This document shows, one piece after another, positions 1-3,000 of a stretch of DNA of 64,000 nucleotides. The position numbers were made by a program. Each line of letters starts with the position of its first letter. The first letter of the stretch is position 1. Origin of the DNA: Escherichia coli (GTDB lineage Bacteria > Pseudomonadota > Gammaproteobacteria > Enterobacterales > Enterobacteriaceae); assembly GCF_045037415.1 (NCBI RefSeq), contig NZ_CP173438.1; one strand, written 5' to 3'.

Positions 1-3000
1 CCCGGTTGTGACTGCAACACCCGCTGAGAATTATTGTTTATCTGGTTTTCTAAATGCTGTTGTTGCAGCTGCGTTTGCGTTTTCAGTTGCTGGTTCAGCA
101 TCCCTTTTTGCTGAATTTGCTGCGTCTGCATTTGAGTTTGCATCCGCTGCTGGCTGGGGATCTGATATCCCGGCTGGTTAGGGTTGTTCAGAGTATTAAT
201 GGGCTGTGCAAAGCCGACAAACGGCAGGAGTGCCGTCAAAAGCAGAAGTCGTTTCATCGCGTATCCTCCTCTGAAGATATTCTTTAAGTTTACTCGCTTC
301 CCGGCAAAACGATGATTAATTCAGAGTTATATACCAGGCTTAGCTGGGGTTGCCCCTTAATCTCTGGAGAATAACGATGATAAAACCGACGTTTTTACGC
401 CGGGTGGCCATTGCTGCTCTGCTCACAGGAAGTTGTTTTAGTACGGTAGCCGCGCCTCCTGTTTCTTATGGTGTGGAGGAAGATGTCTTCCATCCGGTAC
501 GCGCGAAACAAGGGATGGTGGCGTCTGTAGATGTTACTGCCACTCAGGTGGGAGTGGATATCCTCAAGGAGGGCGGGAATGCCGTTGATGCTGCCGTGGC
601 GGTGGGCTACGCGCTGGCGGTAACGCATCCTCAGGCAGGGAATCTGGGCGGCGGTGGTTTTATGCTGATCCGCTCGAAAAATGGCAATACCACGGCTATC
701 GATTTCCGCGAAATGGCACCCGCCAAAGCGACCCGCGATATGTTCCTCGATGATCAGGGCAACACGGACAGCAAAAAATCACTCACTTCGCATCTGGCTT
801 CCGGCACACCCGGTACGGTAGCGGGTTTCTCGTTGGCGCTGGATAAATACGGCACCATGCCGTTGAATAAAGTGGTGCAACCGGCGTTTAAACTGGCACG
901 CGATGGTTTTATCGTTAACGACGCGCTGGCTGACGATCTCAAAACCTACGGCAGTGAAGTGCTGCCGAACCACGAAAACAGCAAAGCTATCTTCTGGAAA
1001 GAGGGCGAACCGCTGAAAAAGGGCGACAAGCTGGTGCAGGCGAACCTGGCAAAGAGCCTGGAGATGATTGCCGAAAACGGCCCGGATGAATTCTACAAAG
1101 GCACGATAGCGGAACAGATTGCCCAGGAGATGCAGAAAAACGGTGGCTTGATCAGCAAAGAAGATTTAGCGGCATATAAAGCGGTCGAACGCACACCGAT
1201 AAGCGGCGATTATCGCGGGTATCAGGTTTACTCCATGCCACCGCCATCTTCCGGCGGTATTCATATCGTACAAATCCTCAATATTCTGGAAAACTTCGAT
1301 ATGCAGAAGTACGGCTTTGGCAGCGCCGACGCGATGCAAATCATGGCAGAAGCTGAGAAATACGCCTACGCCGACCGCTCGGAATATCTTGGCGACCCGG
1401 ATTTTGTCAAAGTACCGTGGCAGGCGCTGACCAATAAAGCCTATGCCAAATCTATTGCCGATCAAATCGATATCAATAAAGCGAAGCCATCCAGCGAAAT
1501 TCGTCCTGGCAAGCTTGCGCCTTATGAGAGTAATCAAACTACCCATTACTCAGTAGTGGATAAAGACGGTAACGCCGTGGCGGTGACCTATACACTGAAC
1601 ACCACCTTCGGTACGGGCATTGTCGCGGGCGAGAGCGGTATTTTGCTCAATAACCAGATGGATGATTTCTCCGCCAAACCAAGCGTACCGAACGTTTACG
1701 GGCTGGTGGGCGGCGATGCCAACGCCGTCGGGCCGAATAAACGCCCGCTGTCGTCGATGTCACCAACCATTGTGGTCAAGGATGGTAAAACCTGGCTGGT
1801 CACCGGAAGCCCAGGCGGTAGCCGGATTATCACCACTGTGCTGCAAATGGTGGTGAATAGCATCGATTATGGAATGAACGTCGCCGAAGCGACCAATGCG
1901 CCGCGTTTCCACCATCAGTGGTTGCCGGACGAGCTGCGTGTCGAAAAAGGGTTTAGCCCGGATACGATCAAGCTGCTGGAAGCAAAAGGTCAGAAAGTGG
2001 CGCTGAAAGAGGCGATGGGCAGTACACAAAGCATTATGGTTGGGCCGGACGGTGAGCTGTACGGTGCATCCGACCCGCGCTCGGTGGATGATTTAACGGC
2101 GGGGTATTAATATCTTAAGCCCTCTCCCGGTAGGTGAGGGCTTAAATGACAAACGTAGATTGCAAATTCTCTATTTCACACGCGCCATATAATACGCATC
2201 GACATATTCACCGTTTCGTAATGCGTACTTCTTGCCAGTCCCTTCAATCTCAAAGCCAAATTTTTTATAGACCTTAATTGCTGGCGCGTTATCGACGAAC
2301 ACCGTTAGCTCGATACGATCTACCCGCAACCAGTTGTCGCACATTTCAATCATCTCTCGCATCAGGGCGCTGGCGACGCCGCGGTTCTTCCAACGGGAGT
2401 CGACACAGATACCAAAATCGGCAACATGACTGCGGCGTGGGCGTTGTTGCACGTCAATGGTGAGATGGCCTACGACGATTCCATCAATACAGGCGACTAA
2501 CTGCTTGATGCCAGGGCGAGCGGTGAGTCGTTCCAGCCACATTTGTTCTGAAGGATGAGGCACCTGTAGCGTGTTGTAATACACCTCCGGCTGGGCGTGA
2601 ATCTGCCTGATGGCCTCGTAATCGCGTGTTTCTGCGTGGCGTATTACTATCTCACTCATTCCTTTGTCCTCTTTGGGGTAAATGTCCCTTTCAACATCAT
2701 TGACTTTCAAATGCGAGTCAAATGCATTTTTTTGCAAAAAGTGTTGGACAAGTGCGAATGAGAATGATTATTATTGTCTCGCGATCAGGAAGACCCTCGC
2801 GGAGAACCTGAAAGCACGACATTGCTCACATTGCTTCCAGTATTACTTAGCCAGCCGGGTGCTGGCTTTTTTTTTGATCTTTCGTTCTCAATTTATCCTC
2901 GGGAAGTGCTTGTGTTCGTTATGCGCACTCCAGTAGGAACCACGTCCGCTTTGCGCTAAGGTGTAAATAACCACCTTAAAAAGGACGAAATCATGGTCAT

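Follow-up and report, generated by a model that had tools for sequence, protein, structure and literature searches.

Organisation of the ggt-yhhY junction

In the window, i.e. the whole 64-kb stretch of DNA that was analysed, the orthologues of ggt and yhhY are convergent and directly adjacent, and the ORF list contains no cargo ORF between them. The locus is composed of the following features:

377..2110, plus strand: ggt CDS (gamma-glutamyltransferase), left flank; its stop codon TAA occupies 2108-2110 in the ORF list
2111..2170, no strand: ggt-yhhY intergenic spacer of exactly 60 bp between the convergent genes
2115..2145, no strand: palindromic hairpin with a 10-bp stem, TTAAGCCCTC/GAGGGCTTAA, and an 11-nt loop, which folds on both strands
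2142..2170, no strand: right half of the spacer, 29 nt, TTAAATGACAAACGTAGATTGCAAATTCT, carried by compact alleles only and replaced by cassette DNA in island-bearing strains
2171..2659, minus strand: yhhY CDS (GNAT N-acetyltransferase), right flank; the complement of 2171-2173 serves as stop codon

The full spacer (2111-2170) reads TATCTTAAGCCCTCTCCCGGTAGGTGAGGGCTTAAATGACAAACGTAGATTGCAAATTCT. The coordinates of ggt are the same as those in the annotation of strain SK1144, which is 99.992% identical to the window over 50 kb, and the gene shares 94.8% identity with its K-12 counterpart in BLAST. The yhhY product was assigned by a match to Pfam Acetyltransf_1 (E = 4.9e-18), in agreement with the SK1144 annotation. 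The initial annotation had described a ggt-yhhY gap of 60 bp containing a single hairpin, and both the ORF ends (2110 and 2171) and the folding results are in agreement with this description. The sole real Rfam match near the spacer is RyhB, at 2810-2874.

In E. coli K-12 MG1655, the corresponding interval measures 3,454 bp, from the yhhY end at 3581626 to the ggt end at 3585081, and carries yhhZ, yrhA, yrhD and yrhB (b3442-b3446, b4612), yrhA being a pseudogene interrupted by IS1E (insA6/insB6). The K-12 genes listed in the initial annotation were thus correct according to the MG1655 annotation, yrhD alone having been left out. The two intervals occupy the same chromosomal site, between the same convergent flanks, and a GC-rich hairpin directly follows the ggt stop codon in both cases, whereas K-12 carries 3,454 bp with AT-rich cargo and the window 60 bp without cargo. 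The hairpin alleles also differ, that of K-12 being GCCCTCTTC-GTGG-GAAGAGGGC followed by TATTTTG, and 29 nt of the window spacer are missing from K-12.

Between the window and K-12, BLAST homology extends precisely to the ggt stop codon (2110) and restarts at 2168, 3 bp short of the yhhY stop. When the 60-bp spacer was aligned locally with the whole K-12 island, on both strands, no island remnant emerged, the best alignment being a chance-level match of 32 nt. Furthermore, tblastn with YhhZ, YrhA, YrhB and the O55 protein gave no match anywhere in the window, and neither alignment nor BLAST disclosed in the junction any trace of an earlier insertion, such as island remnants, IS ends or a duplicated target. 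The Hcp-toxin/immunity cassette yhhZ-yrhA-yrhD-yrhB is found between ggt and yhhY in K-12 and in strain SCU-204, and is absent from the window. The break at 2110 and the lack of any tblastn match of the island proteins confirm the earlier statement that the K-12 island is absent here, and no identical 60-bp junction was found when the alignment with K-12 was carried out.

Junction states and cargo in complete E. coli genomes

The distribution of the junction was analysed in a set of 5,426 complete E. coli genomes. At least four states were observed: the compact junction, yrhB only, yhhZ-yrhA-yrhD-yrhB with or without IS1, and a DUF4225 cassette. The set is biased, with many ST131 and O157:H7 genomes, and the shares listed here should consequently not be read as natural or population frequencies:

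yhhZ-yrhA-yrhD segment, at least 80% coverage: 3,757 genomes (69%)
DUF4225 cassette of the O157:H7/O55:H7 group, all at least 99% identical: 343 genomes (6%)
short gap between ggt and yhhY (660-bp probe): 1,217 genomes (22%)
compact junction (140-bp probe), a subset of the short-gap genomes: 985 genomes (18%)
window-type 66-mer (probe 2108-2173), a subset of the compact genomes: 853-868 genomes, 715 of them at 99% identity or more (about 16%)

In the 868 genomes (of 5,426) in which it was detected, the 66-mer occurs at one place per genome, and this place is the ggt-yhhY junction every time. The compact count exceeds that of the 66-mer because other compact alleles exist, such as that of GPEC1352, in which a K-12-type hairpin is fused to a window-type right half. 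A short but non-compact gap is present in about 232 genomes (about 4%); the two that were read, VTB96926v and EC147566, both contain yrhB only. The HS-02 junction, where the hairpin is followed by other sequence, was considered as a new cargo type and rejected: the sequence consists of about 300 bp of extreme GC content that truncates yhhY, and is most likely an assembly artefact. With at least four junction states among these genomes, the proposal that the interval is a variable hotspot is well founded. The empty site by itself is a weak lineage marker, since about 31% of the complete genomes are devoid of the K-12-type island.

The GC content of the two cassette types (0.34 and 0.32) is far below that of the flanks (0.51-0.54), suggesting that the cargo is of foreign origin. 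YhhZ matched Pfam T6SS_HCP (E = 1e-11), with an additional weak C-terminal match to HNH, and YrhB matched Imm35 (E = 2e-20). No Pfam match was obtained for YrhA even at E <= 1, and a recognised domain is found in neither yrhA nor yrhD. In the literature, YhhZ figures as an "evolved Hcp" whose HNH domain is degenerate (PMC2907695) and as a member of the His-Me finger nucleases (PMC5714182), and an earlier study of E. coli O104:H4 flagged the yhhZ-yrhAB cluster as a genomic island (PMC3309015). On the basis of the Pfam matches and of the published descriptions of YhhZ, the K-12 cargo is a predicted orphan type VI secretion (T6SS) toxin/immunity cassette that was later interrupted by IS1. Thus read, yhhZ would encode an Hcp-HNH nuclease toxin and yrhB an Imm35 immunity protein, and the gene order suggests that YrhA could be the immunity protein to YhhZ.

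The O157-type cargo comprises a DUF4225 gene with a frameshift (Pfam E = 1e-35 for the O55 gene) and, adjoining it, a second gene encoding a 138-aa protein with hydrophobic segments. DUF4225 is known as a T6SS antibacterial toxin domain, the immunity gene of which encodes a small adjacent transmembrane protein (PMC9765294). The O157:H7/O55:H7 cargo would correspond to a decayed DUF4225 toxin gene accompanied by a small membrane protein. This cassette resembles that of K-12 in that its left boundary, after the ggt hairpin, falls on the same base and its right boundary on the yhhY stop codon; it is likewise AT-rich and carries cargo of the toxin/immunity type. However, its cargo is unrelated to that of K-12, the only sequence common to the two types being the 36-bp ggt-hairpin region, and the cassette is absent from the window. 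The Hcp-HNH/Imm35 and the DUF4225/small-membrane-protein cargoes have their boundaries in common, and the unoccupied ancestral allele persists beside them across phylogroups.

Orphan T6SS effector/immunity cassettes could have landed repeatedly at the base just 3' of the ggt hairpin, a landing-pad proposal that we regard as quite improbable. The shared cargo boundaries would be explained just as well by cassette swapping through homologous recombination in the conserved flanks. If the landing pad were real, it would point to a hairpin-directed insertion or cassette exchange, or to a long-term balancing selection on carrying versus lacking toxin/immunity genes.

Origin of the compact junction

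Over its first 24 kb, the window shows essentially 100% identity with ST131 genomes, including EC958, JJ1886, JJ1887, MNCRE44 and many others, whereas the flanks of the junction share 95-97% identity with K-12. These values are in agreement with the earlier placement of the strain outside the K-12 lineage and, judged by its sequence, the strain is ST131-like and far from K-12. The junctions of the ST131 strains EC958, JJ1886 and SK1144 are identical to that of the window, without any difference. ST131 belongs to phylogroup B2. The site is polymorphic within B2, since the genomes SCU-204, F11 and MCJCHV-1 carry the yhhZ-type cassette.

The state of the junction outside E. coli was explored by an outgroup scan with YhhY as query and one genome per species. 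Among the 45 loci recovered, 42, distributed over about 15 enterobacterial genera, contained both genes, and in 38 of these ggt and yhhY are convergent with a tblastn end-to-end distance of 41-138 bp. After subtraction of both stop codons, this distance corresponds to a spacer of 35-132 bp. The genera with compact loci include Escherichia, Citrobacter, Enterobacter, Klebsiella, Pluralibacter, Pseudocitrobacter, Lelliottia and Yokenella. In E. albertii, Escherichia sp. E1V33 and the divergent "E. coli" E69, the spacer measures 60-62 bp and reproduces the hairpin and the right half of the window nearly base for base, the E. albertii junction differing by a hairpin loop in inverted orientation. 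The E. whittamii spacer (70 bp) is diverged, with a hairpin at the same position.

The right half of the spacer (2142-2170) was compared in the window, GPEC1352, one yrhB-only strain, SCU-204, K-12 and O55:H7. These 29 nt are missing from every island-bearing genome examined and are found in the outgroup Escherichia. Since they are absent from these island-bearing genomes, the window junction cannot derive from an island deletion in a K-12-like state. From these comparisons, the compact junction appears as the ancestral allele, in which the island was never inserted rather than lost, the K-12 genes being the insertion. In other E. coli lineages, foreign AT-rich DNA would have filled the site, starting immediately 3' of the final hairpin base downstream of ggt. 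Taken as a whole, the account in which the spacer is the ancestral unoccupied allele, the AT-rich insertions occurred elsewhere and the hairpin is a common 3'-end element is very probably correct.

Two other explanations of the short spacer have to be weighed against this account. According to the one, the compact junction would be an artefact of assembly or of sequence collapse, or the spacer would encode a small RNA or a small protein. An artefact is hard to reconcile with the 715 independent complete genomes matching the 66-mer at 99% identity or more, and a small RNA with the comparison of the spacer with Rfam, in which no family was matched at E <= 1. A 43-codon ORF on the plus strand (2146-2277) does begin in the spacer and could speak for another product; it was rejected as a gene, as it runs antisense through the yhhY CDS and has nothing in its support. 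Both versions are considered extremely unlikely. According to the other, the loss would be secondary: an ancestor of the strain would have possessed the yhhZ-type cassette, and the empty junction would have been restored by deletion or by import of an unoccupied allele. The cassette carried by the other B2 genomes SCU-204, F11 and MCJCHV-1 is compatible with such a history, and so are the last 300 bp of ggt, which are identical in the island-bearing SCU-204 and in the window. Moreover, the B2 island is about 96.5% identical to that of K-12, a divergence similar to that of core genes which suggests that the island is old in E. coli, and donor alleles exist, the junction of "isolate 648" being 100% identical to that of the window. 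A simple deletion is nevertheless excluded by the 29 spacer nt discussed above, and the hairpin allele of the window is unlike the one linked to the island. A secondary loss is possible on these grounds, though doubtful.

The presence of an occupied site next to a window-identical ggt end in SCU-204 indicates that alleles with and without cargo have been exchanged by recombination within B2. SNPs were compared in 15 genomes over the final 160 bp of ggt and the first 160 bp of yhhY. The resulting pattern, including that of the yhhY 3' end, is a mosaic and gives no direction as to a retained or a re-imported allele. In ST131, the empty allele may have persisted without interruption or may have been recovered by homologous recombination, and either way the allele would be the ancestral unoccupied one.

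The compact junction of the window is a genuine strain difference, but an ordinary one of a kind already known, and the site is a small hotspot where orphan toxin/immunity genes have been inserted. As a small presence/absence polymorphism, the site separates K-12-like from ST131-like genomes and matters little beyond bookkeeping. Three points are clarified: the compact form is probably ancestral, both cargoes are putative orphan T6SS toxin/immunity modules, and the ggt 3' hairpin forms the left edge of every variant. They may be of interest to those who catalogue orphan effector/immunity loci and to users of the K-12 reference for the annotation of ST131 genomes.

The hairpin downstream of ggt

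The centroid structure of the hairpin has an energy of -18 to -19 kcal/mol on both strands, with 6 G-C pairs in its 10-bp stem. Compared with shuffled sequences, the z-scores are -1.8 on the plus strand and -2.9 on the minus strand. All the Escherichia alleles examined form a stem-loop of -19 to -29 kcal/mol at the same position, with three distinct stem sequences. RNAalifold analysis of nine junction alleles gave double changes in 2 of 12 pairs and a covariation term of +0.15; this covariation is weak because the three hairpin alleles are out of register in the alignment.

GC-rich palindromes are present in the ggt-yhhY spacer of other genera too. Some of those found in other Enterobacteriaceae are REP-like, e.g. 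GCCGGGTGGCG... or CCCTCTCCC...GGGAGAGGG, and would be compatible with a hairpin that is the copy or the remnant of a dispersed repeat, either a REP/BIME-like palindrome or a miniature mobile element. Against this, the motif GCCCTC-N(5-15)-GAGGGC has a single copy in the 64-kb window (0.04 expected), the 66-mer occupies one place per genome in 868 genomes, and flanking target duplications are absent from the junction. The hairpin differs in this from REP/BIME elements, which are present in many copies per genome, and its origin from a dispersed repeat is very unlikely.

The hairpin at 2115-2145 has the GC-rich stem-loop of an intrinsic terminator, but no U-run was found 3' of it on either strand, the tails being AUGACAAAC on the plus strand and GAUAUUAAUA on the minus strand; the K-12-type hairpin allele, by contrast, has TATTTTG after its stem. 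The scan for consensus promoters and terminators did not call the hairpin, as it is devoid of a T-run and its loop of 11 nt is longer than 8 nt. Its identification as a canonical intrinsic (Rho-independent) terminator was rejected on the basis of the missing U-tract on both strands, the 11-nt loop and the negative scan. Textbook bidirectional terminators carry a flanking A-tract and a flanking U-tract. Like the bidirectional terminators of convergent E. coli genes, the window has a single stem-loop in a short spacer; unlike them, it lacks these flanking tracts at 2115-2145.

Most likely, the hairpin is a 3'-end element shared by the convergent ggt and yhhY transcripts. It could act as a bidirectional terminator, as a collision point for RNA polymerases and/or as a 3' stabiliser. 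For convergent E. coli genes, an intervening stem-loop has been reported to position head-on collisions of RNA polymerase, leading to bidirectional termination (bioRxiv 10.1101/2022.10.23.513370). Termination of the collision type would require no U-tract, and would fit the geometry of a hairpin located between convergent genes.

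Hairpin and island variants at the ggt-yhhY site

The stem of the ggt-yhhY hairpin is unchanged between E. albertii (L010) and E. coli. The loop reads TCCCGGTAGGT in E. coli, and in E. albertii it is the reverse complement of this, TCGCCTACCGGGA. The loop difference is a small inversion between the stem arms. Another variant was found in GPEC1352 (L006):

L006 3041-3099: compact ggt|yhhY junction of GPEC1352, 59 bp

This junction is chimeric, the ancestral right-half spacer being joined to the K-12-type hairpin allele, which is normally linked to the island and here sits in a compact junction. 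Either the K-12-type hairpin is older than the insertion, or the allele is a recombinant.

Within the DUF4225 island of O55:H7 (L004, 7209-7295), an 89-bp stretch matches the 5' region of yrhB in the yrhB-only form (L005, 3325-3412) at 73% identity. This match hints that an older yrhB module was displaced by the DUF4225 cassette.

In the window, yhhY and yhhX flank the gene of the small RNA RyhB, whose terminator hairpin (2849-2867) is followed by a T-run:

2810-2874, + strand: RyhB small RNA (Rfam RF00057, 83 bits, E = 7e-16)

Other differences between the window and K-12

Three further positions of the window were compared with K-12:

7947-11430: 3.5-kb segment in the gntU-yhgN interval
23312-26125: 2.8-kb segment in the glgP-glpD interval
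~30149-30162: breakpoint in the rtc locus, which is truncated

The gntU-yhgN interval is only 56 bp long in K-12, versus the 3.5-kb segment in the window, and constitutes another indel separating K-12 and ST131. The segment codes for a helicase of the RecQ family and for a DprA-like protein; it is also present in SCU-204, a B2 strain, and as a pseudogene in O55:H7. The glgP-glpD interval of K-12 measures 265 bp and contains only a yzgL fragment; the genes of the 2.8-kb segment encode a PstS-family substrate-binding protein and two hypothetical proteins.

At the rtc locus, ~3.2 kb of the K-12 sequence is absent from the window, namely the 3' part of rtcR, the whole of rtcB and part of rtcA. At the breakpoint, the two BLAST blocks of the window versus K-12 have an overlap of 14 bp, suggesting that the truncation is a deletion between short repeats. 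Both rtcR and rtcA are annotated as partial pseudogenes in the ST131 genome SK1144.

Suspect database records

In the record of strain HS-02 (L058), the ancestral hairpin is followed by extremely GC-rich DNA, which truncates yhhY and is most likely an assembly artefact:

L058 ~6036-6340: GC-rich, low-complexity stretch, ~300 bp

The 4-kb contig L012 belongs to a metagenome-assembled genome labelled 'uncultured Flavihumibacter sp.'. Its YhhY and YhhX proteins are, respectively, 95% and 99% identical to those of E. coli, and the contig is almost certainly E. coli contamination.
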